Of a stretch of DNA of 64,000 nucleotides, positions 7,178-23,073 are shown in pieces. A program made the translations under genes and the position numbers. Numbering within the stretch: position 1 is the first letter of the stretch; each line of letters starts with the position of its first letter. Source of the DNA: a virus (Duplodnaviria; Caudoviricetes); IMG/VR virus record IMGVR_UViG_3300044852_000015, positions 1 to 64,000 of that record. One strand, 5' to 3'. The notes below the pieces were generated by a model, which was not told the origin of the DNA, ran no database searches, and saw only the letters and a program-made list of their open reading frames with translations.

Positions 7178-10144
7178 ATGGCTAACTTAGCATTAAGCGT
7201 TGATCCAGGGTATTACCTCGCGGCTCAAAACGCTAGTTGGATTCTGGACCCGAACGTGGACTTCGTTAGCTTTACTAAAGACGGCCCTTCACCGGCTATC
7301 TCCAAGTACATCGCTTACGATACTCTGGTGCCTCCGAATCCGTTCATTGCGGTAACACAGGACGGTAACGGGAACGTCGTTTACGATGGTGGCTTCCCTA
7401 AGTTCTACAACAGTGTAGCCCCCGAGGCTGGTTTGGACCCGCTCTTCAGTATGGAGTATCGGGGCACTCGAACCGCAGGGGCCACTGGTAACACGTACTA
7501 CTACGATGCCTTCACGGATCTACAGGTGACGATTGCTGCTGGTGACCGGTTGGTTTACGACATCTGGCAGAACAGTGTTGATGCTCGTGTGGGTATTGAT
7601 GCCATTACGACGGTGGATGTTGGGGTAGACCCCACTCACTATTCCTTACGTGATTGGGCTACCCCCCTTGCGGACCAAAACGGTCTCGGCATTCACCCGG
7701 CTACTCCCTTGGGTGGTCTTTCAGTCAATCAGTGGTATCACCGTGAGTTTGACCTCACTCCCTGCGCTGGATACCGATTTGTAAAGTGGAGTCTGGCTTA
7801 CGAAGGTGAGATCGCGGGGACGTTCTACACCCGCTTTAAAGAAGTGTACATCGTGGACTCGACCGGTAAGGTGAAAGCCGTACTGTTCAAAGACACGATC
7901 AGGCTTCCTAACTCCACCTCCACTGAGGCTGGGGCTTCGGGTTACACCGGAACCAGTAAAGAGATCTACGACCCACGGTCGCACTTGTCCGCTTCGTTCA
8001 AGTACTTGTTCAACGCCATTCGATGGACAGCCAACCCGGCTAAGGTGGCGGCTGGTAACAAGAAGATCTTGATTTTGGGTGACGTGGTCTCAACGGGTAG
8101 CTACGCCATCAAGAACACCGGCGCGACAGGCTTCTTCACCAGCCTCACTAACCTGTGTACCGCCGTGGGGTTCACCCCGACCTTCAAAGACACCTCCGAC
8201 TACGTGGGCGGTTACCTCAATGTCACCTTGGCTGAGATGTCGGATTACGCTTGCATTTTGGTCATGGGTTCTCTGGGTGGATGGGATGCAAAGATCACCG
8301 ACGCTTGTGTAACGGACATGCAAACCTTCCGTATTAACGGTGGGGGCATCATCCTGATCACAGACGACGGTCCTGACCTCAACAACGTTACTGAGGCTTA
8401 CCCTGCACCCCAAGTGGCTCGTCAGTTCTTTGTGACAGTGAACAAGATCGCCGTTAACTTCGGTGCGTACTTCACTGGTAACTACGACAGGACTCCGGTC
8501 AACGTGGGCTACCTGCGTGCGAACTACGGTGACCATCCGCTCTACTCGGGGATGTTGGATTCCGAGAGCATCAATGCTGGCGGGTCTGAATCGAAAGTGG
8601 TACTGGCGACGTTCCAGAAGTACACCGCTGCTAACATCCCGAACGTGTCGATCGCCAACAACGGGATCAACTCGATCAAAGCCATTGCGATGATGAAGGA
8701 CGGTACGGTTGAGCTTTACAGCTTTGTGTACATCATTGCCACGGGTCAGTTGTTGAAGATTCTGGATGCTGACGGGGTGGAGATCAACTCGCTACCTACC
8801 TCATTCAGAAACACCCGGACCTTCTCAGTGCAAGTGTTGGGGGCTGGTCTGGGGACTATCGTGGGGGAAGTTCTACTCAACGCCGACAAAGTGGCTGAGT
8901 TGAGCTACTCCGATGCGTTGGGTTCTGTCGAGTCGTGGTACGGTGGTGGTAGTCAGCTTATCCCCGTAGCGAAAGGTGACGTGTTCACCATTCGCATCAC
9001 CAGTCCGTTCCAGTATTCTCGAACGTTACCAGTGAACCGTAACCAACCTGGACTTGGTCCAGCGTACAAGCTACCCGTGTTGCTCAAGTCTATTCAAGCC
9101 GACGGACTCTCAGGGGTTCATGTGAACACGGTGTTGAAGAATGCCATAGCGCAGATGAATTTGGATTATTCGCACCTACAGAATTACCTTCACGGTGATC
9201 CTGCGACTAATCTGAAAGTGTTGCGGCAGTATTTCGCGAGTACTCTGGAACTACCGCCGACAAAAGGTTACATCTATCCTTCATCGGCGGCAGCTATCGA
9301 GGCCATGAGTCGACTGGTACCGCCCTCGCAAGAAACAGTCTTTAATACGTGGTCACGCTTCTCCAACAACGCATACTTCCCCGGTGGAGTAGGTGCTACC
9401 GGTGAGGCGGCAGCATGGACGTGGGATGCAGCCAAACAAGCGGCTGTGATGCCACTGAACTCGAACACGTGGTTGGGCTTTGTGTCTCCGGACGTTACCG
9501 ACACTTATGAGATCGACGCAGTCATTCAATCTGACGACCTCGACGATGACACCAACGGAATCATCTTGTCGTTCGCACTGTCTCCTGACGGTCTGACGAA
9601 CAGTCGTTTGTGTCTACAAGTGAACCGTGGGGGTAACAGTCCACAGGCTTCTCACTCAGTGGCTGTGAACGGTAGCTCCGTTGCCATCGTATCGACTGAC
9701 TTCGCTGGCCGACAACCCACGCCAAACGGTGGGGATGGATGGGCTGGTCGCTTTACTCGGGTGAAGATCAACCGCAACGGCGACAACTTCAAGATCCAAG
9801 CCAGTCAATGGAACTCGATGTTGTTAGATCCTGCGTCGCTGATGCAGTTCACGTTGAACGATAAACCGGAGCTTGCTCAGTTCAAAGGGGCTAAACCTTG
9901 GGGGTTCATCAACATCTCTCAAGCGAAGTCTTACTTTAAACTGAACTCGTTCAAGGGTGGTCAGCTTTACGACATCGTAATTGACGTCGCCACGGGTCGG
10001 GTTTACCGATACTCCAACGGGGGCTGGGCGGTTCTACAGAACCTCGCGGCTAAAAACATCTTCGGTGCCCCACGAACCATTGTGAACTCGGAAACCGGTG
10101 CGCAGTTCCATCTGAATGCCGACGGCTCGATCACTGCACTTTGA
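7178..10144 (+). CDS. Large modular tail fibre/receptor-binding protein
   Basis: 988 aa, beta-rich and G/N/T/W-rich. The C-terminal segment (SDDLDDDTNGIILSF) looks lectin-like. Flanked by fibre genes. Confidence 0.65.
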   Translation: MANLALSVDPGYYLAAQNASWILDPNVDFVSFTKDGPSPAISKYIAYDTLVPPNPFIAVTQDGNGNVVYDGGFPKFYNSVAPEAGLDPLFSMEYRGTRTAGATGNTYYYDAFTDLQVTIAAGDRLVYDIWQNSVDARVGIDAITTVDVGVDPTHYSLRDWATPLADQNGLGIHPATPLGGLSVNQWYHREFDLTPCAGYRFVKWSLAYEGEIAGTFYTRFKEVYIVDSTGKVKAVLFKDTIRLPNSTSTEAGASGYTGTSKEIYDPRSHLSASFKYLFNAIRWTANPAKVAAGNKKILILGDVVSTGSYAIKNTGATGFFTSLTNLCTAVGFTPTFKDTSDYVGGYLNVTLAEMSDYACILVMGSLGGWDAKITDACVTDMQTFRINGGGIILITDDGPDLNNVTEAYPAPQVARQFFVTVNKIAVNFGAYFTGNYDRTPVNVGYLRANYGDHPLYSGMLDSESINAGGSESKVVLATFQKYTAANIPNVSIANNGINSIKAIAMMKDGTVELYSFVYIIATGQLLKILDADGVEINSLPTSFRNTRTFSVQVLGAGLGTIVGEVLLNADKVAELSYSDALGSVESWYGGGSQLIPVAKGDVFTIRITSPFQYSRTLPVNRNQPGLGPAYKLPVLLKSIQADGLSGVHVNTVLKNAIAQMNLDYSHLQNYLHGDPATNLKVLRQYFASTLELPPTKGYIYPSSAAAIEAMSRLVPPSQETVFNTWSRFSNNAYFPGGVGATGEAAAWTWDAAKQAAVMPLNSNTWLGFVSPDVTDTYEIDAVIQSDDLDDDTNGIILSFALSPDGLTNSRLCLQVNRGGNSPQASHSVAVNGSSVAIVSTDFAGRQPTPNGGDGWAGRFTRVKINRNGDNFKIQASQWNSMLLDPASLMQFTLNDKPELAQFKGAKPWGFINISQAKSYFKLNSFKGGQLYDIVIDVATGRVYRYSNGGWAVLQNLAAKNIFGAPRTIVNSETGAQFHLNADGSITAL

Positions 10145-10161
10145 ATAAATAGGGAATAACC

Positions 10162-11787
10162 ATGGGCAACATTATCCTCAAGTACCCAGAAGACCCTACT
10201 GGTGTAAACCCGAACAACCTGGTCATCAACGAACCTCATGACTTGGGACCTGCTCGTAACCGAGCATTCGTTCCTAACTACGGCTCTTACTTCACAGAGT
10301 CGATGATTGTTACTGAGGCGGCGACCGGTCGGGTGCTCACCAAGGGTGTTCACTACATCGCGGCACAATTGCAACAAGATGCCACACTGGCGATGGACAA
10401 AGAGATTTGTGCTGTTGTCGTGGTGATTGATCCTGACGTACAGGACTCACTACTGTTCACATACCAAGTTGTTGGTGGTGTGTTCAGTACCTCGGTCGCA
10501 GCCTTGTCGAAGATGATCGAAGACCTCGACATCGACGAACGTGCGGTCGAATGGGGTGCTGTTATTGGTATCCCTTCAGCGTTCCCACCTGCTCCTCACT
10601 TACACGACATCGGTGACCTTTACGGTTTCGAATACCTCGTGGAAGCGTTGGATGCACTGCGTAACGCAATCCTGATCGGTGACGAGGCAGCTCACGATGA
10701 ACTGCGCCAGTACATCAATTACCAGGACGGCCTGATCCAAGCGGACTTGACTGATCTTCGTGGCGACTTCGAAGCACACGAGAACAACAAGACCAACCCA
10801 CACGCGGTAACTCAAACGCAAGTAGGTTTGGGTCTGGTACAAAACTACGCGATTGCTACGACTGCTGAAGCGCAGGCCGGTACTGTTAACAACAAGTACA
10901 TGACCCCGCTCCTGACGTCTCAAGCGATCACGCAGTTGGCGTTGATCCCGCTGAACACGCACATCGCGGACAAGACGAACCCCCACCAAACGACTAAAGC
11001 ACAGGTCGGTCTGTCACTGGTAGAAAACTACCAACCAGCCACCCAAGCCGAAGCCGAGGCAGGGACTCGTACCGATCGCTATCTGACCCCGTTGACGACT
11101 AAGCAAGCCATTACCTTACAGGCCGTGGTTCCGCTGAACACACACATCAACGATCAGACGAACCCGCACAACACTACCAAAGCTCAAGTCGGCTTGGCTA
11201 GCGTACAGGATTACGGCATTGCAATCCAGACTGAAGCTGAAGCCGGTACCTCGAACCTGAAGTACATGACTCCGCTGCGGACTGCGAACGCGATTGCGAT
11301 CCAAGCGTTGGTGCCACTCAACGCCCACATCAACAACATCAACAACCCTCATGCAACTACCAAGGCGCAAGTGGGTTTAGGTTTGGTTGATAACTTCGCC
11401 ACTGCCACTACGGCAGAAGCGCAAGCGGGTGCAGTGTCGACCAAGTTCATGACGCCTCTGTTGACAGCGCAAGCAATTGCAGCTCAAGCGGGCGCTGCGT
11501 TGAATGCTCACATCGCCAACCAGAGTAACCCTCACGGGGTTACGAAGACACAAGTTGGGCTGGGTAACTTACCGAACGCGATCACGAACTCTCGTGGTAC
11601 GAACTCGGATGCTTACTTGCTGACGGCGAAGGGGATGTACGACCACGTTAACTCTGGTGACTTCGACTGGCGTTACGCTCCAAAGAACGCGGCAGGTTAC
11701 GATTGCTCTGTTCACTGGAACGGTGAGGGTGTTTACATCTGGGGTGGCGGTACGTGGCGTAAGGTCTGGCCTGCACAGTGGACTTGA
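10162..11787 (+). CDS. Tail fibre protein with five NPH repeats (paralogue of 4467-6746)
   Basis: Same N-terminal YPEDPTG..N...NE.H module, five NPH repeats and a short C-terminus ending WRKVWPAQWT. Confidence 0.8.
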   Translation: MGNIILKYPEDPTGVNPNNLVINEPHDLGPARNRAFVPNYGSYFTESMIVTEAATGRVLTKGVHYIAAQLQQDATLAMDKEICAVVVVIDPDVQDSLLFTYQVVGGVFSTSVAALSKMIEDLDIDERAVEWGAVIGIPSAFPPAPHLHDIGDLYGFEYLVEALDALRNAILIGDEAAHDELRQYINYQDGLIQADLTDLRGDFEAHENNKTNPHAVTQTQVGLGLVQNYAIATTAEAQAGTVNNKYMTPLLTSQAITQLALIPLNTHIADKTNPHQTTKAQVGLSLVENYQPATQAEAEAGTRTDRYLTPLTTKQAITLQAVVPLNTHINDQTNPHNTTKAQVGLASVQDYGIAIQTEAEAGTSNLKYMTPLRTANAIAIQALVPLNAHINNINNPHATTKAQVGLGLVDNFATATTAEAQAGAVSTKFMTPLLTAQAIAAQAGAALNAHIANQSNPHGVTKTQVGLGNLPNAITNSRGTNSDAYLLTAKGMYDHVNSGDFDWRYAPKNAAGYDCSVHWNGEGVYIWGGGTWRKVWPAQWT

Positions 11788-11883: not shown

Positions 11884-12411
11884 ATGAGTTCAGTTACACA
11901 CAACGTGTTGCCTATTAATACTTTCCCGCAGTTGTCTCGGGAGTCGTTACAGGTAGACCGCATCCTCGCAAGCACTTACGCTTACGAACAAAACCTTGTA
12001 GTGGCGATTGGTACTCCAGACGGGTCTCAGATTCTCCACAGTCCTCAGCAGTACGCTCAAGACTTCAGTTTCTGTAGCACCAAGATCGAACGCATGGAGC
12101 ACCTGTCACTGACCATCGCTAACATCTGTTACTCCATCCGCGCCAGTCAACACCACGTTGGGCCAATCACCGCCCACTTATTCATAGCCCCAGAGACGGG
12201 CCTTAGTTTTAAAGAACACACCGATCCTGATGACGTGTTGTTATATATGGTCGAAGGTCGTAAGTTGTTCGTAGTCGCCGGTCGAGAGATCTGGTTGGAA
12301 ACTGGGGAGTCTCTATTTATTCCTGCCAACACATTGCACCAAGCATTCGTTGACGGTTACTCACTGATGCTCAGCATTGGTTTGGAATCGTGGATCGAGG
12401 AGAAGCTATGA
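11884..12411 (+). CDS. JmjC/cupin 2OG-Fe(II) oxygenase (ROX/YcfD-like core)
   Basis: SFKEHTD (HxD), VEGRK, LETGESLFIPANTLHQA (distal His) and LSIG give the typical JmjC facial-triad layout. Confidence 0.75.
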   Translation: MSSVTHNVLPINTFPQLSRESLQVDRILASTYAYEQNLVVAIGTPDGSQILHSPQQYAQDFSFCSTKIERMEHLSLTIANICYSIRASQHHVGPITAHLFIAPETGLSFKEHTDPDDVLLYMVEGRKLFVVAGREIWLETGESLFIPANTLHQAFVDGYSLMLSIGLESWIEEKL

Positions 12412-13445
12412 CGCCACCCAAAATTATCTACGTCAAGACTACGGGGACTTGTAACCTTGATTGCCAACATTGTTTTACCGGTGGGAAAAATGGTGACCGT
12501 ACGCAATTCGACCCTGATGTCGCTGCGGCGTGGATCAAAGAGTTTATCGCCAAGTATCCACCCGACACCCACACTCATCTCGAGTTGCACGGTGGGGAAC
12601 CTTTTATGGTCCCACTACCGAAGCTCCAACAGTTCACGCACCACTTCCAAGGTTTTGAGAACGTCAGCATCTGTGCGAATTCGAACCTGACCTTCCGCAT
12701 CACTCCTGCGATCTTGGACTTCATTAAAGTCGACCTAGACTCGCAGATTGGTACCAGTTGGGATCACTGGATTCGCTGGCCTACTCCCGAGAAGTACGAG
12801 CTGTGGCGTAGCAACTTGGAACTGCTCAGAGCCGAAGGTGTTCACATCGGTCTCAAGGTTTCCGTGAGTCGTCAGTTGATCGACAGTTCACCGCGTTGGT
12901 TCTTGGATCAGATGGATGCTCTAGCGGTGGACACCATCGCTTTGGAACGCATTACGGCTGGGGGGAGTTCGGTAATTAATATGAATGTCTTCCCAGACAA
13001 CGAAGCTCAAGACAACTGGTATTTGGAGTTGTTGAAGCTATACCAACAAGGGAACCACCGCTGCAAGATCAGTACGTTAGACACCCTCCTAGACAAGATC
13101 CGTTTAGGGATGGTGAAAGTCGATACCAACTGTCGCAACTGCGAACAGCATTTGGTGACGATGAACTCAGACGGCACACTCGGTGGCTGTCCTAACGTAG
13201 CCTCTGAACGCAACTACGCCAATGTTCACCAACCTGTAGACGAGTTTCTGTACTCGGAAGATCGCCTCACGGAGATTACTAAAGAGTTGGACTTTGGGGA
13301 TTGTGTTCACTGTGACGTATTTGATCTTTGTGGGGGTGACTGTCATCAATTAGCTTGGCAAGGGAAACGTTGTGGGGGACTGAAGAACACCCTGCGGTAT
13401 ATCTCTGGCCGAGACACTCAATCCAATTTAATACTGAAGGTGTAG
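12408..13445 (+). CDS. Radical SAM/SPASM-domain protein 1
   Basis: CNLDCQHC (CX3CX2C), HGGEP, and a SPASM-type C...GxLGGC...CVHCDVFDLCGGDC...C segment. Start moved to ATG 12408 (ATGA overlap). Confidence 0.9.
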   Translation: MTPPKIIYVKTTGTCNLDCQHCFTGGKNGDRTQFDPDVAAAWIKEFIAKYPPDTHTHLELHGGEPFMVPLPKLQQFTHHFQGFENVSICANSNLTFRITPAILDFIKVDLDSQIGTSWDHWIRWPTPEKYELWRSNLELLRAEGVHIGLKVSVSRQLIDSSPRWFLDQMDALAVDTIALERITAGGSSVINMNVFPDNEAQDNWYLELLKLYQQGNHRCKISTLDTLLDKIRLGMVKVDTNCRNCEQHLVTMNSDGTLGGCPNVASERNYANVHQPVDEFLYSEDRLTEITKELDFGDCVHCDVFDLCGGDCHQLAWQGKRCGGLKNTLRYISGRDTQSNLILKV

Positions 13446-13448
13446 GGT

Positions 13449-13961
13449 ATGGGTAACGCAAGTACGGCTGATGTGATTAACTCATTCAACGCCATTATCA
13501 AAGCCAACGGTAACTCTGGTATTTCGTGGGGGAACAATAACTACCCCTACTCAGCAGACACCGCCGGGTTCTTTTGGGGACCTAACTGGGGTATCGCCGC
13601 GCAACCTGATCCAGCGTCTCTGGGGTCTGGCTATCAAGCCAGTGCTTCGGTGATTCGTAACACCCTGATGTCTTATGCTCGCAACTATGCGTACATTCGG
13701 ATGGTTCAGGTATTGGTCTATCGTTCTGGCGATAACGCACTGTTGTATAACGGTACGGCCTTGGGTTACTCCAGAGACCCTGTGTACATTCCCGATGCAG
13801 TAGCGGGTGCTACCGACCGTGGTTATCCGATCTCCTTGGGTGAAGTCAACAACTACCTGTGGCGGATCTGGCAGAACTACGCTGCTGCTCGTGCGGCAAC
13901 AATCCAATACGTTGCTTGGGTTTGCCACTCCAACTGCCACATTAACCGCTCCCGTCGCTAA
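13449..13961 (+). CDS. Gly/Asn/Tyr/Trp-rich protein with C-terminal CHSNCHINRSRR; candidate substrate of the cluster
   Basis: 170-aa ORF 3 nt after rSAM 1. Its only two Cys and two His lie in the terminal motif. The function is inferred. Confidence 0.7.
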   Translation: MGNASTADVINSFNAIIKANGNSGISWGNNNYPYSADTAGFFWGPNWGIAAQPDPASLGSGYQASASVIRNTLMSYARNYAYIRMVQVLVYRSGDNALLYNGTALGYSRDPVYIPDAVAGATDRGYPISLGEVNNYLWRIWQNYAAARAATIQYVAWVCHSNCHINRSRR

Positions 13962-13971
13962 GGCTCCCGTG

Positions 13972-14685
13972 ATGTCACAAACCCTCGTTGAAACCATTGC
14001 TCCGTTCTCTCCTGACCTGATTCGTCGTAACTTTACCGAACAGGGTTTAGTCTACGTCGTGGACTACGGTAACAGTCGGATCAAAGGTAAAGTGTTCCTG
14101 ACTTACCTCAGTAACCTCGACCTGCGTTACCACGTTCGCATTCGAAACGTTGAAGAAGCTTGTGAACTCCTGCAAGCGTACTTGACCTTGCCGATGCTGG
14201 TGAAAGTCCCTGAGTTGGAAGACACGGTGGTTGAAGTGTTGGCTGCGGCCAAAGGTTTGCCTCACAACCTGACTTTCGACCCAAGTGAGTTCATCGCTGC
14301 GAACCGTGAGATCATCGACCATTGGAATTCGGTAGTCGATTCGTTGGCGCTGTACGCTCTGTTCTGTCATGGTGAGGAACAGCACAAAGAGTTCATTGAA
14401 AGTCATGAAGTCGATGACACCAGTGATCCAGTGGGTAGTAACTTCGTCCACCTGTGCACTCACCCAAAGCTACCGTTGTTGATCAACCCGTGTCCTGAAC
14501 AACCAGTGAAGTTCTACTCCAAGTACTTCACGACCAACATGTTCCGTGGTCAGAACCTTTTCCACTTCTGGGGTAAAGCTGAAAACATGCTCTACGTCAG
14601 CTATGTGGCGATGGTAGAAGACCCGGCAGGTTTCCAACAATCCCACGATGCCCTTCAAGCGGCAGTACTGGAAAAGCATTCATAG
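13972..14685 (+). CDS. Hypothetical protein in the rSAM cluster
   Basis: Start moved to MSQTLVET, 10 nt after the previous stop. No recognisable motif. Confidence 0.7.
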   Translation: MSQTLVETIAPFSPDLIRRNFTEQGLVYVVDYGNSRIKGKVFLTYLSNLDLRYHVRIRNVEEACELLQAYLTLPMLVKVPELEDTVVEVLAAAKGLPHNLTFDPSEFIAANREIIDHWNSVVDSLALYALFCHGEEQHKEFIESHEVDDTSDPVGSNFVHLCTHPKLPLLINPCPEQPVKFYSKYFTTNMFRGQNLFHFWGKAENMLYVSYVAMVEDPAGFQQSHDALQAAVLEKHS

Positions 14686-14694
14686 GGGTACCGT

Positions 14695-15750
14695 ATGTTT
14701 CACTTAGTTGGTAAAGTTTTTCTTAAGCTGGAGACCGAACCTTACACCACACAACCACGTGCGGTGATCTCCAGTGAAGGTGTCTTCCCTATGGAAGTCA
14801 ACCTCGAAACCGTGTACCCGGACAAGCTCCGTATGAAGGCAGATCACGTCAGTGACATCTACCCTCATCGCATCATCGAGCTGATGGACGAAGCGGTGAA
14901 GCCGGAATGGCCTAAAGGGTTCACGATCTATTGCTGCCCTGAGTCGTACCGTACCTTGGCTGCGGCGTGGTACAAGGCACTGTTCCCGAACATCAGCCTG
15001 GAACTGTTCCTGATGCTGTTCAAAACTCAGTCGATCAAAGACGAGTTTTGTCCGATCGACTTCGACAGTCGTGGGGGTATCCAGAACGCTGCTGAGATCA
15101 TCACTGAAACGCAAGCCATCGAACTCTACGATACTGTGGAAGTTTCTTTGGAACTGCGTGACTGGATCAAAGCTCGTTACGCGGACCTGTCTGAAGAGTA
15201 CCTGTTGCTCAGCTACTTGAAGTACGGTAACTACCGTCCGTTCTTGCGCACGGCTAAACAGGTGGCCAACAAAACCATCCGTACGTTGATCAATGATGCC
15301 AAATACATCATGGCCGTTCATGCCCACACCCACCCTGCGTGTGAACGTGAAGCAATGGCGATCTTGCCGTCGGGTTGGGACCACGACCTACCTCGTGTTG
15401 GACCACAGTGTGCGACCAGTCGCTTCAAGTCCAAGACGACTCAACCGGTCGACATGACTGACCGCTGCCCGATCAAGTTCACTCGTGACCTGCGCATGTG
15501 GTTGGGTGAAGTGTTGGGCTACCGTGATGACGTCGTGGAACGTTATATGTCCCTGTTGCCTCTGACCGAATGGTTCGGCGTCCGTGCACAAGAAGTGGAT
15601 CTCACGGTGTTCTTGGAATACCTGCGCTCACCGTACTCCAACACCCAGCACTTCGTTAGCAGCAGCAAGCTCACTGCTAACATCCCGATGATCCACCGCT
15701 TCCTCGACATGTCCGATGCCCAATTGGCCACGATCGAATTCATCCATTAA
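14695..15750 (+). CDS. Hypothetical protein in the rSAM cluster
   Basis: 351-aa ORF with RBS AGGGG and tight operon spacing. Confidence 0.7.
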   Translation: MFHLVGKVFLKLETEPYTTQPRAVISSEGVFPMEVNLETVYPDKLRMKADHVSDIYPHRIIELMDEAVKPEWPKGFTIYCCPESYRTLAAAWYKALFPNISLELFLMLFKTQSIKDEFCPIDFDSRGGIQNAAEIITETQAIELYDTVEVSLELRDWIKARYADLSEEYLLLSYLKYGNYRPFLRTAKQVANKTIRTLINDAKYIMAVHAHTHPACEREAMAILPSGWDHDLPRVGPQCATSRFKSKTTQPVDMTDRCPIKFTRDLRMWLGEVLGYRDDVVERYMSLLPLTEWFGVRAQEVDLTVFLEYLRSPYSNTQHFVSSSKLTANIPMIHRFLDMSDAQLATIEFIH

Positions 15751-15764
15751 GTAAGGCCCTCCTG

Positions 15765-16772
15765 ATGACACAACTGATTCCGTTAAAGAACATCCTGACT
15801 CAGAAACGCGGTCCGGGTAAAGAAGTTCTGTTGATTCTGTTTGAGCGTTGTAATCTAACGTGTTCGTTTTGTCATCAGGACCACCAGTCTACCCTCGGGA
15901 TGGAAGACATCTATCGCAAAGCTGACGACTTGATTGCCAGCTACGACGGTAGCTCTGACTGGGTGGTGAACCTGACCGGTGGTGAGTTGTTCATGGACGA
16001 ACACCCTGACCACGTGTTTGGTCAGTACCTGATGTTGGTGCGTCGAATCAAAGCCGCTGTACCGACTGCGAAGTTCTGCTTCATCACCAACTTTGTGTTC
16101 ACCCGTGTGGCTTGGGTAGAGCGACTGTTGCGGATGTTGCGCTATGACAAAATTGAAGTAACCCTCGGGACTTCTTACGATCCTTGTGGTCGTTTTAACG
16201 CCGAGAACAAAGAGACGTTCTTCCGTAACTTGCAATACTTTAAGGAAGACGTCCAAACCATTTCCATGGTGCTGACCCGACAGAACATCAACTGGTTCTT
16301 GAAAGGTTCCACTGACGAGGTGTTTGACTACATCTACGACACTCACGGGATCTACTTTGACCAGTACACTCCGGGAGACGGCTACCGTCAGCATCAACCG
16401 ACTGATCGTGAACTTGCTGACCTGTACATCGAGATCAATCGACGCTATCCCAAGGTCGAACCTCTGCGCAGTTGGCGTGAGCAGTCCGTTAACGTGTCTA
16501 CCTGCCGTTCTACGGTTGTAGTGACACCAACGTCGCAAGTAACGACTTGTAGGTCGCTGGTGGGCTCTAACGCAGTCCTAGACGAAGCGCAGGGGGAGTT
16601 GATCAAACTCAAAGCTGAGGAGACTTTCCTCGAGCGTTACAACTGTTTGGAATGTGAGCACTACCAACGTTGTGGCTTGCGCTGTTTCCTCCACAGTGAA
16701 TTCCTCGAACCTTCACAGGACGAGTGTCACTTCAAAAGAATGTTCGACCAAATCCTGACCAAAGGTGCGTAA
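15765..16772 (+). CDS. Radical SAM protein 2 with C-terminal Cys cluster
   Basis: CNLTCSFC, TGGEL, and C-terminal CLECEHYQRCGLRC...C. Confidence 0.88.
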   Translation: MTQLIPLKNILTQKRGPGKEVLLILFERCNLTCSFCHQDHQSTLGMEDIYRKADDLIASYDGSSDWVVNLTGGELFMDEHPDHVFGQYLMLVRRIKAAVPTAKFCFITNFVFTRVAWVERLLRMLRYDKIEVTLGTSYDPCGRFNAENKETFFRNLQYFKEDVQTISMVLTRQNINWFLKGSTDEVFDYIYDTHGIYFDQYTPGDGYRQHQPTDRELADLYIEINRRYPKVEPLRSWREQSVNVSTCRSTVVVTPTSQVTTCRSLVGSNAVLDEAQGELIKLKAEETFLERYNCLECEHYQRCGLRCFLHSEFLEPSQDECHFKRMFDQILTKGA

Positions 16773-17860
16773 TGGATCTCATCGTTAAACCCACGCTGGC
16801 TTGCAACTACAAGTGTACGTTCTGCTCCAGCACCACCAATCCTGAGGGTGCTAAAGTCGTACTCGATCTGGACATGGTGAGACGGTTTATCGTTCGCTAC
16901 CCAGAGACTCAGGTGATCATCATTAATGGTGGCGATCCCCTGATGGTGGAACCACAGTACTACTGGGACCTGATTGCGATACTGGATGACCTCAAGTCTC
17001 CGGCTAAGCTGTCGTTCACCAGTAACCTGTGGGCCTATTACAAGAAGCCTTCGATGTGGGTGGAGTTGTTTAACCATCCACGAGTTGGTGTAGGGACTTC
17101 GTTTCAATACGGCGATGCTCGGTTGAAGGGCGACTTGAAGCCTTTCACTGAGGACGAGTTCTGGGCGATCTCTGACATGTTCCTCCGGGACGTTGGGGAA
17201 CGCTTGGACTTCATTGCGGTGATTGACCAGTCAAACGCAGACACCGTTATTCGGACCGTAGAGTTAGCTCGTGACATGAACGTCGTGGCGAAGATCAACC
17301 CTGCGTTCAGTTCAGGTGAGCAAGTGGTGTCTCGGGGTATCACCATGGGGAATGCGGGTTCCGCTTTTCTGCTGGCTGACATCTACGCCAAGTACGTAGA
17401 GATCCATGAAGCAGGACTAACTGAATGGGAATACAACACCACTCAGTTGACTCACCGTTTAAGAGACGGTCGGACTTCGTGTCCACAGAACCGAGAGTGT
17501 GACTCAGGTATCCGTAACTTGGAACCGAATGGTCAGTACAACTCCTGTGGTAGTTTCGGGGATGACAAACTCTATTTGATTGACTTTGAGTCAGAGATGG
17601 CTGGTGGTTTCAGTCGTCCACTTCAAGTCCCTGAGTTACTGTCCATGAAAGACAGTTGCTTCAGTTGTCCGATGTTTGCTATCTGCAACGGTTGCCGTAA
17701 AACCATCCACGATCACAAGTCGTTAGGGATGGTGGAGTCACACTGTCGCAAGATGAAAACCCTCGCCCCCAAGATCATTGCAATGAATGGCTTGACTGGT
17801 GTGTTGGAACCTACTCCGTACGTCGATGAGTCTGTCTCGGACCTAATCTTTAAAGGATGA
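16772..17860 (+). CDS. Radical SAM/SPASM-domain protein 3
   Basis: CNYKCTFC, NGGDP, and CPQNREC...SC...CFSCPMFAICNGC...C. Start at the TAATG overlap (16772). Confidence 0.9.
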   Translation: MDLIVKPTLACNYKCTFCSSTTNPEGAKVVLDLDMVRRFIVRYPETQVIIINGGDPLMVEPQYYWDLIAILDDLKSPAKLSFTSNLWAYYKKPSMWVELFNHPRVGVGTSFQYGDARLKGDLKPFTEDEFWAISDMFLRDVGERLDFIAVIDQSNADTVIRTVELARDMNVVAKINPAFSSGEQVVSRGITMGNAGSAFLLADIYAKYVEIHEAGLTEWEYNTTQLTHRLRDGRTSCPQNRECDSGIRNLEPNGQYNSCGSFGDDKLYLIDFESEMAGGFSRPLQVPELLSMKDSCFSCPMFAICNGCRKTIHDHKSLGMVESHCRKMKTLAPKIIAMNGLTGVLEPTPYVDESVSDLIFKG

Positions 17861-17863
17861 GCT

Positions 17864-18961
17864 ATGAACAGTTACACGAACTTCAATCCAAACACAGCGT
17901 TCGATTTGATCTTGGAAATCACGCAAGGGTGTAAGCACAGTTGCACCGGGTGTTTGGTAGACACCAATGGAAGTTTGTGGCCTTCTGAAGACGACTTCGG
18001 AAAGCTCCGTGGTTTGGTGACTGACATGGTGGCCAACGGAATGCGTCCTAGTGTGTTGACGCTAGGGCCTACCGACATCCTGTCTGCGGGTAATCTGGTA
18101 GAGTGTTTCACCGACCCGCACATCAAAGCCATGGCTGACTCTTTTGAAGAGTTGGAGATAGGTTGTACGTTCCTCTCCACTGGGGAGCAGGGTTATCGTC
18201 ACTTGGCACAATTGGTGGATCACCTGATGCCGGGTAAGACGGTGAACTTCAACGTTCCGTTCGAGATCAACCACCTCGGGAATGAGAAATACATTCAAGG
18301 GATCAAGAAACGCATTGCACAGTTTGCGGGTTACTTGCAATCTGCTCGGTTGGGTGAAGTCCAGTGTCAAGCCCAGTTCGATGTCGGTGCCTCTGACGTC
18401 CCACAAGACCTCATAGAGCTGTTTGCCGCCGCTAAGCTGACACACATCCACGATGAACAAGCCGCTGTGTTTACGTTACCTCACGGGCGTCGTGACCTTA
18501 ATGAGTTAATGAACCGCAGCAACTTCATTCGCTCAGCGCAGATCCTCGCCGACTACCAGATCGGTACGGTGGGTGTCCCCGAGGATGAAGACCGCCAGAT
18601 CATGGAGTTGATGTACCGTAATGGGAAACTCTATTACCGTCCTTTCCTCGTGACTGAGATCGTGGTACTGGACCGTGCCTTTGAAGTCCGTGGTCCGTGG
18701 TTGTTCAATCAGATGGTGGCGTTCAAACAAGCTCGGATGATCGGTGGCTTTGAAGACGCCATGAAACACCCTCTCTGTAACAGTTGCCCTCAGATGGGTC
18801 AGTGTGGTGAACGCGGTATTCATCAGTTACAGAAACTTATTAACTTCGACGGTTGCTTAACCGCTCTGCGCAAGGTATCGGAAAATGTCCCTAGTACAGG
18901 ATCACGCTCGGCACTTCGACCTACAGCTCGACTTAACCATCGGGTGTCGGAATCGCTGTAA
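17864..18961 (+). CDS. Atypical radical SAM-like protein 4
   Basis: CKHSCTGC, with GPTD in place of the GGE motif, and C-terminal CNSCPQMGQC...C. Confidence 0.75.
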   Translation: MNSYTNFNPNTAFDLILEITQGCKHSCTGCLVDTNGSLWPSEDDFGKLRGLVTDMVANGMRPSVLTLGPTDILSAGNLVECFTDPHIKAMADSFEELEIGCTFLSTGEQGYRHLAQLVDHLMPGKTVNFNVPFEINHLGNEKYIQGIKKRIAQFAGYLQSARLGEVQCQAQFDVGASDVPQDLIELFAAAKLTHIHDEQAAVFTLPHGRRDLNELMNRSNFIRSAQILADYQIGTVGVPEDEDRQIMELMYRNGKLYYRPFLVTEIVVLDRAFEVRGPWLFNQMVAFKQARMIGGFEDAMKHPLCNSCPQMGQCGERGIHQLQKLINFDGCLTALRKVSENVPSTGSRSALRPTARLNHRVSESL

Positions 18962-19961
18962 CGGTTGTAAGGTTGATCTGGACGGTACTCAGTATCCTCC
19001 GATGGATGACTGGGTTAAATTCAAGAAACTGGTGGTGTCAGTAGAGGCCGCAGGAATGCACCCGTATGACCTGATCTTAGGTCCCACAGACATCCTCACT
19101 TCGGCTAACCGTGAAGAAGTGATGAATGACTTCCGCATGGTGGATCTGCTCCAACACTTTAAGTTCCTGTCGATCACTTGTGGGTTCTTGAGTACGGACT
19201 TACAGGAGTACGAGTGGTTGGCACGGCAACTGAATGTCATTATGCCGGGCAAAGGGTTGACGCTCACCATTCCTATTAAAGTGGGGTACCTGAACAACCC
19301 GAAGTACACCCAAGGTATCCGTGACCGTCTGAAGTATTTCACTGACCAGTTGATTGACATTACCTTAAACGAGGTGGTGACTACGGTGGTGTACGACGAG
19401 CAAGAGGTCTACAAGATCTCCACTCAGGAACACGTTAACCTCGACATGATCACTCAGTCCCTCGGGGTTCACTTCGGTCGTAAGAAAGACATCGACTTTG
19501 TGATCCACCACGGTCGTGAAGGTTTTGCTAACTTGCTCAATCGTGATCGGTTCTTACGCTCTGCTCGCAGTCTGGCGCTGGTCACTCGTGACGCCAAAGA
19601 GAGCCTGCCGGAATACGGCATAAAAGAAACCAACGACATGGTTCCTCATGAAGGTCGTGACACTACGGTGATCTACAACAATGGGCGCCTGTACCACCGT
19701 CCGTTCTTGATGGAACACTTACCTTACTTCGATCCAATCTTTGAAGTTAAAGGTGAGTGGGTAGCGAACACCCTGATCGAAGAGCGTAGTGAGCAATTGG
19801 TAGAAGGCCTCACGTTCGCTGTAGAGCACCCTCTGTGTAAAGGTTGCCCTGCCATGACTCTGTGTGCTGATCGTGGCGTACACGCGATTATGAAGCACCT
19901 CGGAGCCCAAGAGTGCATCACTGACCTAAACCAAAGCTTGGAGGGTATCTCGTGGACGTAA
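18885..19961 (+). CDS. Atypical radical SAM-like protein 5 (paralogue of protein 4)
   Basis: CRNRCNGC, LGPTDIL, and C-terminal CKGCPAMTLC...C. Confidence 0.75.
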   Translation: MSLVQDHARHFDLQLDLTIGCRNRCNGCKVDLDGTQYPPMDDWVKFKKLVVSVEAAGMHPYDLILGPTDILTSANREEVMNDFRMVDLLQHFKFLSITCGFLSTDLQEYEWLARQLNVIMPGKGLTLTIPIKVGYLNNPKYTQGIRDRLKYFTDQLIDITLNEVVTTVVYDEQEVYKISTQEHVNLDMITQSLGVHFGRKKDIDFVIHHGREGFANLLNRDRFLRSARSLALVTRDAKESLPEYGIKETNDMVPHEGRDTTVIYNNGRLYHRPFLMEHLPYFDPIFEVKGEWVANTLIEERSEQLVEGLTFAVEHPLCKGCPAMTLCADRGVHAIMKHLGAQECITDLNQSLEGISWT

Positions 19962-20446
19962 TTCAGCCGTGGACTATCGCCATCGGTCGCTTTGATCTCG
20001 GGACTTCGTGTACTGAGACTTCCTTTTATGGTGAGTTGGAACATTCCCGCATTAGACCCAGGGTGTGGGAGTACGTGGAAAAGGTGTTCGACAAACACGA
20101 CTCCAGTTGGTTGGTGAATCGCAATACCGTCCTGCGCAAGTTGTCACCTAACCAAATGAAAGACCCGGAGGTCAGTCGGGGTGGGTTCTTGACTTCGTTG
20201 TTGTGTCTTGTGGAGTCCGATGCTGAGATTGTACTGATGGACCCTCGGTCGTTTATCCAACGGGGAATTCCACCAGAGATCCAAGCGCTCACCACGGGTA
20301 ACCATGTGATCCGTCCCAAGCTGGGTGAGTTGTATGTGTTTCCGTCCTACGTCACGGTTTACGTGAGACCCGGTAAGTTGGGTCGGACTGACCTGATCTG
20401 TGATTACGATTACGACAAACCCCGCACCGAACGGGATAACCTCTAA
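19952..20446 (+). CDS. Degenerate 2OG-Fe(II) oxygenase-like protein, apparently lacking the metal ligands
   Basis: Aligns with the next ORF (IQPW, MDPR, P..G.LY.FPSY) but has no HxH and no distal His. Confidence 0.6.
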   Translation: MDVIQPWTIAIGRFDLGTSCTETSFYGELEHSRIRPRVWEYVEKVFDKHDSSWLVNRNTVLRKLSPNQMKDPEVSRGGFLTSLLCLVESDAEIVLMDPRSFIQRGIPPEIQALTTGNHVIRPKLGELYVFPSYVTVYVRPGKLGRTDLICDYDYDKPRTERDNL

Positions 20447-20455
20447 GGGGTACGT

Positions 20456-21013
20456 ATGGAACTGATACAACCGTGGCAAACCACCATCCTGAAACATAAC
20501 GTGTCGGATGAAGTAGACTTGGAACAACTGGTGACTGAACTGATCACCACCAGTAATTTAACCGAGACTGCACACAAAGCTCGCACTACCGCAGAACGTA
20601 ACCCGTATGCAACGGCGGTGCGAGACACGGTGGTAACTCCGAAAGCACAAGCGTACATCGAGCAGGTGTACGGGCTGGTGACAGAACACAAACTGTACTC
20701 CACCGGTTCTTTCGGTAAGCTGGTAACAGACGGCTCAGGAATGGACCCACACGCTCACCCTACGACGTTCCTGTCCGCAGTGTTGTACTTGGACGACTCC
20801 GATGCCACGATGGCTATAATGGACCCTAGACGTTGTCAACAACGAGCCCTGCCTCGTGAGATCCATGCGTTCGATAACGACTTCTACAACATCCTCCCAC
20901 GTGCTGGCGACTTGTACCTGTTCCCCAGTTACCTGCTCCACCTAGTACGTGCTTCCAAACCCGGCTTCCGGTTGTCCTTCGTGACGGACTACCGCTTCGA
21001 ATCAGAGTACTGA
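20456..21013 (+). CDS. 2OG-Fe(II) oxygenase (TIGR02466-like)
   Basis: HAHP..LSAVLYL...PRAGDLYLFPSYLLHLV...RLSF provides the HxH...H triad plus the Arg. Confidence 0.75.
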   Translation: MELIQPWQTTILKHNVSDEVDLEQLVTELITTSNLTETAHKARTTAERNPYATAVRDTVVTPKAQAYIEQVYGLVTEHKLYSTGSFGKLVTDGSGMDPHAHPTTFLSAVLYLDDSDATMAIMDPRRCQQRALPREIHAFDNDFYNILPRAGDLYLFPSYLLHLVRASKPGFRLSFVTDYRFESEY

Positions 21014-21014
21014 C

Positions 21015-22385
21015 ATGCAAACCAAACCACCGATCATCCTCAGTCTGAATCCAACATATTACTGTAACTTCAGTTGTTCCTTCTGTTACTTGACCCCAGC
21101 ACAACTGAATGACCGCAAACTGTTGGACCTGAACAAACTGGAAACCCGACTGGATGAGATCTTGGAACACTACTCGATTGAGTGGGTGGACATCTACGGT
21201 GGTGAGGTTCTGCTGTTACCTGACGTTTACCTCTCAGCACTCGTGGCGTTACTGAAGACTAAACAAGTGGGCGGGATAGGTTTGAACACCAACCTCTCAC
21301 TGATCAAGGACATCGTCTTCGATCCAGCGGTACACGTGTCGGTGAGTTACGATTTCGAGGCGAGGGAGAAACACGAGTTAGTGTTCGCTAATATGGCGAA
21401 GCTGACCAACCCATTCTCGGTGCTGTTGTTGGGGAGTCCTGCGTTACTCAAGAAGCCTGCTGGTGAAATCATCACGGCGCTTAACACGTTCCCCAACTTG
21501 GTAACTGTAGAAGTCAAACCCTACAGTCCGAACAGTGCCAACGACTTACCCGTCACCTATAACCAGTTCGAGAACTTCGTTAAGGACTTGATTATCTGTG
21601 ACGTTCCAAAGCGGTTTAGTCTGACCAATGAAACGCTGATCCAAGAAGCCTTGACGGGTCTGCGCAATGCCTACTCGGATAACCATTTGTACATCACCCC
21701 TCGTGGTCGATACGCCGTGTTGGAGTTTGACTCTCAGGATCGTGAGTACTTCTTGGAGTACACTGACCTGACGAAATACTTCGAGTGGTGTGCTCAAGAG
21801 AAAGCCAAAGTAGCGGTCAACTCGTACTGTGGGTCATGTGAGTTTAAAGGACGGTGCCTGTCCGAACACTTGCGTGACGTCACGACTTTAGAGACAGGTT
21901 GCAACGGTGGCTATCACTTGCTCAAATGGGCAGAAGACCGTCAGCGTCCTAAAGAATGGAAGATCTACCAACAGGTTTACAATCGGTTGGTGTCTGAACA
22001 CTCCGATGACTTCGCCAAGGTGGAGTACATCGAAGCTGAAGAACTGGTGGAGAACGCGCTACACTATTTCCGTGAGGCTACGTTCCCACTGATCTACCCG
22101 GCCAAGTCTTACGCAGCGGCCATCGTCTACGCCACCTTAATAGAGCAAACCTACGGGTATCCTTTGAGAGAGTCGTTAAACGATGACGACTTGTTCCTAG
22201 GTCAAGACGCTTACTTCGTGCCTTACCGTAAGAACCCAGACGCCTACGAGGCCATCCTCAAACGTTTGGAAACCTTCCCAGATTGGCTGACCTCAGGGTG
22301 GGCTCCTCGCACGGCAGAGTACTTCCGTCTGGAGTGTACCGAGGACGGGATCAACGAAGTCAACGCTAACCTGATTAGTCAATAA
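21015..22385 (+). CDS. Radical SAM protein 6 with a fused ~150-aa C-terminal domain
   Basis: CNFSCSFC, YGGEV and CGSCEFKGRC...C, followed by an extra helical region (YPAKSYAAAIVYA...). Confidence 0.85.
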   Translation: MQTKPPIILSLNPTYYCNFSCSFCYLTPAQLNDRKLLDLNKLETRLDEILEHYSIEWVDIYGGEVLLLPDVYLSALVALLKTKQVGGIGLNTNLSLIKDIVFDPAVHVSVSYDFEAREKHELVFANMAKLTNPFSVLLLGSPALLKKPAGEIITALNTFPNLVTVEVKPYSPNSANDLPVTYNQFENFVKDLIICDVPKRFSLTNETLIQEALTGLRNAYSDNHLYITPRGRYAVLEFDSQDREYFLEYTDLTKYFEWCAQEKAKVAVNSYCGSCEFKGRCLSEHLRDVTTLETGCNGGYHLLKWAEDRQRPKEWKIYQQVYNRLVSEHSDDFAKVEYIEAEELVENALHYFREATFPLIYPAKSYAAAIVYATLIEQTYGYPLRESLNDDDLFLGQDAYFVPYRKNPDAYEAILKRLETFPDWLTSGWAPRTAEYFRLECTEDGINEVNANLISQ

Positions 22386-22395
22386 GGACGCCGTT

Positions 22396-23073
22396 ATGTT
22401 TGCAGTAACCAACAAGGGCGAGATCAAGAAGCTTCAACAGACGCTGAAAGACAAAGGTCTCTACACCGGGATCGTTGATGGCATCTGGGGTCCGCTCAGT
22501 CAAGCCGCGCTGGATAAATCCAAAGGGGAGAAAGTCGTGACAGCACCGTTCGATACCACTCGCATCATCTGGGCCACTAAGGTCTCCAAAGAGTTCATCC
22601 TCGGAGTCCGTGATATTGCCAAACGTCTTGAGATGCCCACTGAGGGGGCTAACTGGTTGATGGCGTGTATGGCCTTCGAGACCGGTGAAACCTTCTCACC
22701 GACGATCAAGAACGGCGCTGGGGCTCCGTACTACGGCTTGATCCAATTCGGTGATGCCGCAGCCAAAGATGCTGGCACTACACTCGAGGCTCTACTCAAG
22801 ATGACTGCTGTCGAGCAGCTTGAGTACGTGTACCGTTTCTTCAAGCCGTACACCGGCAAACTGAAGTCCCTCAGCGATTGCTACTCCAGAATCATCTGGC
22901 CCGTAGCTGTGGGTAAGCCAGAAGACTACGTGATCTTCGACCAGAAAGTACGTCCTACTGCGTACCTTCAGAACAAGGGTCTGGACATCAACAAGGACAC
23001 CATCGTCACTAAAGCGGAATGTGCGGCGAAGGTTCAAGAAAAATACGTGCGTGGACAGCAGTTCATCGCCTAA
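22396..23073 (+). CDS. Modular endolysin: peptidoglycan-binding domain plus lysozyme-fold (transglycosylase-like) domain
   Basis: LQQTLKDKGLYTGIVDGIWGPLS (PG_binding_1 signature DGxxG) and catalytic-type MAFETG...GLIQF. Confidence 0.85.
   Translation: MFAVTNKGEIKKLQQTLKDKGLYTGIVDGIWGPLSQAALDKSKGEKVVTAPFDTTRIIWATKVSKEFILGVRDIAKRLEMPTEGANWLMACMAFETGETFSPTIKNGAGAPYYGLIQFGDAAAKDAGTTLEALLKMTAVEQLEYVYRFFKPYTGKLKSLSDCYSRIIWPVAVGKPEDYVIFDQKVRPTAYLQNKGLDINKDTIVTKAECAAKVQEKYVRGQQFIA

Follow-up and report, generated by a model that had tools for sequence, protein, structure and literature searches.

A phage cassette of radical S-adenosylmethionine enzymes and oxygenases that probably matures a small virion protein with a Cys-His tail

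A run of radical S-adenosylmethionine (SAM) enzymes and oxygenases directly behind tail-fibre genes raises the question of what such enzymes modify in a phage. The run occupies positions 11884-22385 (approximately 10.5 kb) of a 64,000-nucleotide stretch, here called the window, which is part of a 238-kb phage record of IMG/VR (IMGVR_UViG_3300044852_000015). A first-pass annotation had described 12 co-oriented, tightly coupled open reading frames (ORFs) and had proposed a modified structural protein, such as a tail tip or adhesin, as their product. The ORF calls agree with this layout: 12 ORFs, designated o1 to o12, lie on the plus strand with spacings of -77 to +14 nt, and neighbouring ORFs share ATGA-type overlaps at 12408 and 16772. 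A virion protein is the most likely product, as proposed, but the substrate is to be sought in o3 (13449-13961, + strand), a 170-residue protein of the cluster itself, and not in the upstream fibres. We consider it moderately probable that the tail of o3 is the substrate of the enzymes and that the product is a virion protein.

The C-terminal end of o3 is CHSNCHINRSRR, in which the tail CHSN-CHIN-RSRR is encoded at 13923-13958; this is the non-enzyme with a Cys/His tail that had been recognized from the translation. A profile search of 1.84 billion representatives (E up to 1e-3) recovers 799 clusters of the o3 family at 50% identity. In the best 150 of the 799 clusters, to which the tail statistics apply, at least three consecutive CHxx units are present in 137 and at least two in 146, the end R-x-R-R is present in 134, and Ser or Asn occupies position 4 in 397 of the 416 units; none has a database name other than "hypothetical protein". 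The usual tail consists of three C-H-x-S/N units followed by R-x-R-R. The bodies are 18-32% identical to that of the window o3 in the family alignment, in which the Cys and His columns of the tail are invariant. A fast-evolving body joined to a frozen, exposed C-terminal repeat that always lies beside SPASM enzymes is the pattern expected of an enzyme substrate.

The window o3 carries two CH units instead of three, as does the relative P0092 (43% identical), which indicates a sub-lineage and not an error. The number of units varies from 2 in the window through the usual 3 to 4 before a Peptidase_S74 domain and up to 8 elsewhere. L026:3-362 and P0012 hold seven or eight units with SNVV spacers between them, the contig being labelled Dysosmobacter. 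Additionally, tandem pairs of o3 paralogues are present in L027:3477-4237, L035:8624-9848 and L044:3617-4805, and the proteins of the L027 pair are short (125-127 residues).

No NCBIfam family matches o3 at E up to 0.1, and no signal peptide is detected. The AlphaFold2 model of o3 displays a three-helix, three-strand alpha/beta body with a mean predicted local distance difference test score (pLDDT) of 76 and a disordered tail. Fold searches with this model reveal no convincing match (Foldseek against the PDB, best E 0.45; VIA-align wide, best Z 4.0) and no known fibre fold, and a search of BFVD returns uncharacterised family members only. A word-index homologue search with o3 returned o3 alone, whereas the exhaustive profile search gave the 799 clusters. 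A contig scan seeded with the o3 alignment (600 patterns) confirmed none, the confirmation resting on the divergent window sequence alone.

Evidence that the family enters the particle comes from Agrobacterium phage Atu_ph07, in whose purified particles 131 proteins were identified by electrospray ionization tandem mass spectrometry (PMC6102473). The o3 homologue of this phage, AUZ94952, corresponds to gp170 by gene counting from gp155 (285 bp) and gp180 (13,350 bp), and the recomputed masses of gp170 (31.89 kDa), gp176 (66.07 kDa) and gp177 (21.66 kDa) agree with Table S5. In the virions, gp170 is represented by 8 unique peptides with 35% coverage in slices 1-9, with the maximum in slice 1 at the top (PMC6102473 Table S5); for comparison, the maxima of the 117-kDa sheath protein and the 43.5-kDa capsid protein lie in slices 2 and 6, respectively (PMC6102473). 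The slice-1 peak of gp170 fits a heat- and sodium dodecyl sulfate-stable oligomer or a covalent species, although smearing is common in the table. The products gp164-169, gp171 and gp172, which are the enzymes together with the o4 homologue (gp169), are absent from the virion proteome. The o3 family thereby qualifies as a family of virion structural proteins through its Atu_ph07 member. The protein o3 is favoured as the substrate because it is the sole non-enzyme to accompany the enzymes in every lineage and because gp170 is found in the virion and the enzymes flanking it are not.

The co-occurrence of o3 with the enzymes was assessed across phages. A megablast of the cluster against GenBank phages gives no match, and relatives are found at the protein level only. 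Using o7 as the tblastn query, isolated phages that carry the cassette fall in four groups: Ralstonia/Burkholderia Chiangmaivirus phages (RSL2, RSF1, FLC6 and others), Pseudomonas phage pPa_SNUABM_DT01 (DT01), Agrobacterium phage Atu_ph07 and Sinorhizobium phage Phosso. The o3 homologue is gp72 in FLC6/RSL2 and PA10_00065 in DT01. A scan of IMG/VR adds 16 further loci, among them those of an environmental T4-like lineage. All lineages share a core of o2, o3, o4, o5-like genes (one or two) and o7, which is usually accompanied by an oxygenase; in larger versions, o6, o12 with the domain that partners it, genes of the o8/o9 type and radical SAM enzymes that bind B12 are also present. An o3-family ORF is present in 43 of the 57 loci, which were fetched via the enzyme o7 and not via o3, and the remainder are cut contigs or contain variant tails, such as CHGCHSSRGRR. 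The expectation that the cassette always travels with a CHxxCH protein holds in the gene neighbourhoods of all lineages. In most loci sampled, o2 lies directly upstream of o3, and o4 adjoins o3 or sits one to two genes away in every locus, with an o3-o4 spacing of 0-30 nt in most.

A second expectation, that NPH-repeat fibres always accompany the cassette, fails outside the near relatives: other lineages have different fibres or none, and in Bdellovibrionota the cassette lies among housekeeping genes. Tail-fibre genes surround the cassette in three phage lineages, and in the T4-like lineage it is located between them (PHROG tail fibre families, Peptidase_S74 and RCC1/CBM5_12 proteins). The fibre genes differ between lineages. 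In the window, the upstream genes encode a 988-residue virion structural or tail-fibre-like protein (7178-10144, + strand; phrog_11065 virion structural protein, 3.8e-149; phrog_33406 tail fiber protein, 3.4e-16) and a 541-residue, repeat-bearing virion structural or tail protein (10162-11787, + strand; phrog_2163, 6.6e-162, and many tail and tail-fibre PHROGs), homologues of which precede the cassette in DT01 and in contigs L006-L010. The o7 of the window branches apart from the o7 of the DT01-like contigs with the same fibre genes. The 541-residue protein is internally repetitive, and a paralogue directly upstream of it in DT01 (L004:1-3701) and in contigs L008-L010 suggests a duplicated fibre gene pair.

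The earlier assignment of the flanks thus stands for the tail-fibre side, whereas the downstream endolysin is plausible but not proven: the peptidoglycan-binding or lytic-type protein at 22396-23073 (+ strand; phrog_4928, phrog_196) matches PG_binding_1 with 18 bits, below the cut-off, and its DT01 homologue carries the annotation transglycosylase. Genes of phiKZ-type internal head proteins lie just 3' of the cluster. A scan for sigma-70 promoters and for terminators finds fewer sites than in shuffled sequences and is uninformative, since the phage has its own RNA polymerases.

A connection with fibres is also found within the o3 family. Tail fibres and tailspikes trimerise with the help of Peptidase_S74, a self-cleaving chaperone domain. 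In two metagenomic members, P0088 and P0143, the o3 body is followed by (CHxS)4-GD-PG and then by a Peptidase_S74 domain, and the related P0030, P0059 and P0114 end at the linker ...CHGDGPGGGGGV, as if they represented the pre-cleaved form. One further member carries an N-terminal glycine-rich domain.

The cassette is also present in bacteria. A scan of species-representative genomes with an o7 profile returns 37 loci, 28 of which are from metagenome-assembled genomes (MAGs) of Bdellovibrionota, on contigs of up to 2.8 Mb. These loci hold the whole cassette, including o3 proteins ending in (CHxS)3RGRR, and the flanks of the two loci sampled (L054 and L058) contain LolA, signal peptidase II, a DinG-like helicase and DctP and no phage structural genes. 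Within 10 kb of 15 of the 28 loci are one to three Peptidase_S74 ORFs of 330-410 residues; such genes number 1-4 per genome, and one is inside the 21-kb locus in three of the five genomes tested. The ORFs start in a prepilin-like manner, with G-[FMLI]-S-L-x-E followed by a hydrophobic helix (N_methyl over the cut-off in 2 of 8), and end in Peptidase_S74; examples are L058:1186-2223 (-), L042:1029-2216, L036:4342-5388 (-), L032:18211-19254 (-) and L062:13825-15066. This pilin/fibre chimera of Bdellovibrionota appears to be undescribed.

In the o7 tree, 27 of the 28 Bdellovibrionota rows form one supported clade, which groups with the T4-like phage lineage inside a supported set of 33 rows. Because the root of the tree is unknown, no direction of transfer is claimed. 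The remaining MAG matches, which include Rhodobacteraceae, Marinovum and a "Methanobacteriota" bin, have the appearance of phage contigs drawn into the bins. The o7 proteins of L028 (the "Methanobacteriota" archaeon bin) and L031 (the Marinovum bin) are nearly identical, with branch lengths of 0.008 and 0.06, and the two are probably the same marine phage mis-binned into MAGs.

Taken from the gene arrangements, a link of the cassette to fibres is suggested by the Peptidase_S74 fusions, the tail-fibre neighbours in three phage lineages and the Peptidase_S74 genes near the Bdellovibrionota cassettes. The same neighbours could themselves be modified, in which case the enzymes would act on the tail fibres or, in Bdellovibrionota, on the pilin-like fibre proteins, and o3 would be an accessory, for instance a scaffold, a donor of Fe-S clusters or metal, or a chaperone in assembly. 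Fibre genes do stand beside the cassette in several lineages, and Cys/His tails can bind Fe-S clusters or metals. However, the flanking fibres are non-homologous between lineages, and some loci have none; moreover, the o3 homologue is in the virion and the enzymes are not, and an accessory protein needs no invariant, exposed C-terminal repeat ahead of a fibre autochaperone. This explanation is unlikely, and o3 remains the preferred substrate.

The enzymes are those expected to act on such a tail. As first read, six ORFs contain a CX3CX2C motif together with a C-terminal Cys cluster in their translations: o2 (12408-13445; CNLDCQHC), o6 (15765-16772; CNLTCSFC), o7 (16772-17860; CNYKCTFC), o8 (17864-18961; CKHSCTGC), o9 (18885-19961; CRNRCNGC) and o12 (21015-22385; CNFSCSFC), all on the plus strand. 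The C-terminal cluster is CX2CX5CX3C in o2 and o6, CX2CX5CX2C in o7 and CX2CX5C in o8, o9 and o12; by its Cys spacing, the last would be classed as twitch-like. The motifs, Pfam and PHROGs place o2, o6, o7 and o12 in the radical SAM superfamily: Radical_SAM (PF04055) exceeds its cut-off for o7 (32.7 bits) and o12 (31.5 bits), Fer4_12 does so for o2 (24.5 bits) and o6 (26.1 bits), and phrog_1802 matches o2 (2.7e-52), o6 (8.4e-36) and o12. The o2 protein, which also contains GGE, passes the SPASM model TIGR04085 (30.2 bits; cut-off 27 bits), whereas o6 (19.0 bits) and o7 (17.9 bits) fall below it yet contain the full or near-full Cys pattern. The best-conserved gene of the cassette is o7, with 45-63% identity across phages and Bdellovibrionota.

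Assignment to a known enzyme type is not reached. The best, weak NCBIfam matches of the cassette enzymes include PapB, DynA, YhhB, AmcB and the anaerobic sulfatase-maturating enzyme (anSME), and FxsB and GrrM also match weakly. For o2, weak near-full-length matches to PapB, DynA, YhhB and anSME are found, of which PapB is the best, and o7 has a weak full-length match to an anSME-like model. None of these enzymes belongs to the PapB-type ranthipeptide maturase, anSME or DynA equivalogs in NCBIfam, with the best scores at 35-40 bits against cut-offs of 340-450. A PDB sequence search with o2 and o7 finds no relative at E up to 0.01.

The paralogues o8 and o9 are 34% identical to each other and share phrog_31457, and neither has a Pfam or NCBIfam match. 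The Cys residues of CX3CX2C are invariant in 13 aligned homologues, GPTD is present in place of GGE, and the C-terminal cluster of o8 extends to CX2CX5C...C. An hhalign comparison of o8/o9 with the o7 family aligns only 45 residues around the cluster motif, with a probability of 40%. A C-terminal extension of o8 of approximately 25 residues overlaps the start of o9 by 77 nt in another frame (18885-18961). In o12, the radical SAM part (residues 1-310) is fused to a phrog_20737 domain (from 21951; 1.5e-40). The two parts are separate genes in DT01, FLC6, Atu_ph07 and L006-L010, and since such separate genes are often adjacent, the fusion argues that both parts act together. An ESM Atlas feature search with the C-terminal domain of o12 gave no usable match.

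Of the JmjC-type oxygenase and two 2-oxoglutarate (2OG) oxygenases that had been named in the cluster, two hold. The o1 protein (11884-12411, + strand; phrog_8014) is a JmjC_2/cupin Fe(II) oxygenase, with 33 bits to JmjC_2 (PF08007; cut-off 22, only the last 36 residues aligned), 32.6 bits to Cupin_2 (PF07883) and the triad H-x-D...H read as HTD...H; homologues are present in FLC6, DT01, Atu_ph07 and Bdellovibrionota. The o11 protein (20456-21013, + strand; phrog_81, 5.7e-21) belongs to 2OG-FeII_Oxy_5 (PF13759, 45.5 bits; cut-off 27) and contains H-A-H and a distal His. Its paralogue o10 (19952-20446, + strand) scores only 14.3 bits, the H-x-H and distal His of o11 are replaced, and o10 is, as judged by these replacements, a probable pseudo-enzyme. 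The metal-ligand-less o10, the fused o12 and the two-repeat tail are traits specific to the window. In the T4-like lineage, a B12-binding radical SAM gene precedes two tandem paralogues of 221-237 residues with GWH-x-H (L016:12871-14242), which lack a Pfam match and may be divergent cupin oxygenases.

The two ORFs that had been listed as unknown, o4 and o5, have no known family. The o4 protein (13972-14685, + strand; phrog_20767, 6.6e-46) yields an AlphaFold2 model with a pLDDT of 86, and fold searches with this model give no convincing match (Foldseek best E 0.25; VIA best Z 5.6 over 62 residues; Atlas template modelling score up to 0.41, with faint partial-barrel and radical-SAM-like rows). 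An hhalign comparison with the o7 family gives no match, and an ESM Atlas feature search with o4 gave no usable one. The fast-evolving o5 (14695-15750, + strand) has a conserved M-x-H-L-F-type N-terminus, with positional homologues in FLC6, DT01, L016 (two copies), L022 and L024 and phmmer matches in L008, L028 and L031.

These assignments are consistent with a mechanism in which the 12 genes would form one late module that matures o3. The radical SAM/SPASM enzymes would abstract hydrogen atoms in the o3 tail; in all lineages these would be o2 and o7, joined by o6, o8, o9 and o12 where the cassette is larger. Hydroxylation of His, Arg or Asn of the tail may then follow through o1, the JmjC-type cupin, and o11, the 2OG oxygenase; the JmjC_2 family of Pfam comprises ribosomal His/Arg hydroxylases, which o1 resembles, and the o3 tail contains both His and Arg. 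The proteins o4, o5 and o10 and the C-terminal domain of o12 would be non-catalytic helpers. Once finished, o3 would be incorporated into the fibre or baseplate module of the virion, with the enzymes remaining in the cell. The gene content, the invariance of the tail, its strict association with the enzymes and the virion location of gp170 are shown; we infer that the tail is the substrate and that the protein has its role at the host-contact end of the particle.

Three chemistries can be proposed for the tail, each of which is much less probable than the substrate assignment itself. The first is a thioether from the Cys sulfur to a carbon of the Ser/Asn at +3, as in the ranthipeptide C-x3-D and in QhpC. 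PapB (freyrasin), CteB and QhpD are SPASM enzymes that form Cys-S-to-carbon thioethers on repeated short Cys-x(n)-acceptor motifs, and QhpC, a protein subunit of quinohemoprotein amine dehydrogenase, retains such crosslinks once the complex is mature. The best NCBIfam match of o2 is PapB, yet at 39.8 bits against a cut-off of 340. The substrates of ranthipeptide and sactipeptide maturases differ in that the acceptor in o3 would be Ser/Asn at +3 and that the o3 body is a folded 150-residue domain and not a leader. The second chemistry is a His-to-Ser/Asn carbon link, as in three-residue cyclophanes (His-containing triceptides). The triceptide synthases HaaB and HtkB are radical SAM/SPASM enzymes that join an aromatic residue, which may be His, to the beta carbon of the residue two positions further along (PMC11499958), and H-x-S/N in the o3 tail fits this aromatic-x-x motif; however, triceptides are small secreted bacterial peptides, whereas the o3 tail has an invariant Cys before every His and the cassette contains several further enzymes. 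The third is an anSME-like oxidation of the last Cys in C-H-x-x-R, which is possible but not general because one lineage ends in CHGSI.

The cassette had also been described as a RiPP-like assembly line, that is, one for peptides that are made on ribosomes and modified after translation (RiPPs). As that description noted, no protease, exporter or nucleotide enzyme is recognizable among the Pfam and NCBIfam matches inside the cluster. With no leader, protease or exporter, with a conserved folded body of 150 residues in o3 and with a homologue kept in virions, the cassette is RiPP-like as a probable protein-modifying set but is not a strict RiPP pathway. Proteusin (polytheonamide) biosynthesis is similar in that several radical SAM enzymes, including B12-dependent ones, and a 2OG hydroxylase act on one ribosomal substrate, but it involves a leader peptide, a protease and a secreted toxin, none of which the cassette has. 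That proteusin pathways join radical SAM and 2OG enzymes indicates that O2-sensitive and O2-dependent steps can coexist.

Several points weigh against o3 as the covalently modified substrate. The covalent change of the o3-family tails is itself something that we infer; the virion evidence comes from one distant homologue, gp170, whose body is approximately 20% identical to that of o3 and whose proteome data leave the C-terminal peptide unreported. The repeat number is not critical, since the window tail has only two units, and fibre neighbours are not universal, since some loci have none nearby. The sequences of o8 and o9 do not establish them as radical SAM enzymes. Where radical SAM and O2-dependent enzymes serve a single pathway, they have to be separated in time or space. 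Additionally, the Cys/His repeats could bind metal without covalent change.

The last point leads to a further alternative, in which the Cys-His repeats are no more than a metal-binding clasp of a trimeric fibre tip and the enzymes make an unrelated product, such as a small molecule, a cofactor or a DNA modification. The fibre tips of T4 gp37 and gp12 contain axial His-x-His metal sites (iron in gp37), and endosialidase and T5 pb1 carry Peptidase_S74 autochaperones. The o3 family is similar in having a short His-containing repeat at the distal end, and the two members fused to Peptidase_S74 place it directly before that domain, where trimeric fibre stalks end; known tips differ in needing chaperones and not radical SAM enzymes. 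The Chiangmaivirus cassette contains two genes annotated as dihydrofolate reductase between two radical SAM genes (L003:7816-9029; FLC6 gp77 and gp78), which speaks for this alternative, and a GIY-YIG nuclease gene lies just upstream of it (L003:52-960; FLC6 gp69). The window has neither kind of gene, and its cluster holds no nucleotide-handling or small-molecule scaffold enzyme among the Pfam and NCBIfam matches; the all-lineage core is limited to o2, o3, o4, o5 and o7, and SPASM enzymes of this type mostly act on peptides. A clasp beside enzymes with an unrelated product is therefore improbable.

The cassette is an undescribed, widespread radical-SAM/oxygenase system, found in hundreds of phages as well as in predatory bacteria. 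The genome papers of the carrier phages give annotations only, and no description was found in the literature searched on the C-H tail motif or on radical SAM enzymes with tail fibres. The closest described system is the bacterial antiphage defence system HXS (Li et al., Nat Commun 2026, PMC13128918), in which HxsA, a protein with His-x-Ser repeats, is matured by the radical SAM enzymes HxsB and HxsC; the cassette would work in a similar manner but does not belong to that system. Common to both would be the maturation of a full-size protein, with tandem His-x-Ser units and many basic residues, by several radical SAM enzymes, together with small helper proteins; a classical leader/core peptide product is absent from both. 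However, HXS acts in the bacterial periplasm, its protein having a signal peptide and a peptidoglycan-binding domain, and has two enzymes, whereas in the cassette the repeats are Cys-His-x-Ser/Asn at the extreme C-terminus, the enzymes number up to six or more in addition to oxygenases, and the protein belongs to a phage virion. The o3 protein has no HxsA-type (TIGR03979) match, and the HxsC model is below its cut-off on o6 (24.4 against 267.9 bits). That o3 is an HXS-like effector, whose matured basic, His-rich tail binds DNA to block competing phage genomes or counters host defence, would fit the HxsA analogy (HxS repeats, basic residues, radical SAM maturation, DNA binding) and the R-x-R-R end, but it is very improbable given that o3 has no signal peptide and lies in late structural modules with a homologue packaged in virions, that the HxsA/B/C/D models do not match at family level and that the chromosomal copies of predatory bacteria adjoin fibre-type genes.

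With maturation of the o3 tail for the virion as the preferred explanation, a wider reading may tentatively be offered for phages and predatory Bdellovibrionota together. Both might share an enzymatically forged "contact tip" made by radical SAM enzymes and oxygenases from the Cys-His-x-Ser repeats of a small fibre-module protein, which would be covalently stapled, possibly metal-binding and distal on a trimeric fibre, and in the bacteria possibly anchored like a pilin. Recognition or penetration of Gram-negative envelopes would depend on such a structure.

The maturation of virion proteins is generally attributed to folding, chaperones and proteolysis. If the proposed maturation is correct, dedicated oxygen-sensitive radical enzymes acting on a particle protein would represent a new layer of phage assembly and perhaps of host recognition, and with the contact tip, if real, a virion protein would for the first time be seen to undergo post-translational modification that depends on radical SAM enzymes. 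Since the family is large and cultured models exist (Atu_ph07, RSL2/RSF1/FLC6 and pPa_SNUABM_DT01), mass spectrometry and genetics can address the idea directly. The motif (C-H-x-S/N)n-R-x-R-R defines a new and sharply delimited candidate substrate class for SPASM enzymes, and the fact that predatory bacteria carry it next to rare genes of fibre type hints at a common means of attacking Gram-negative cells.

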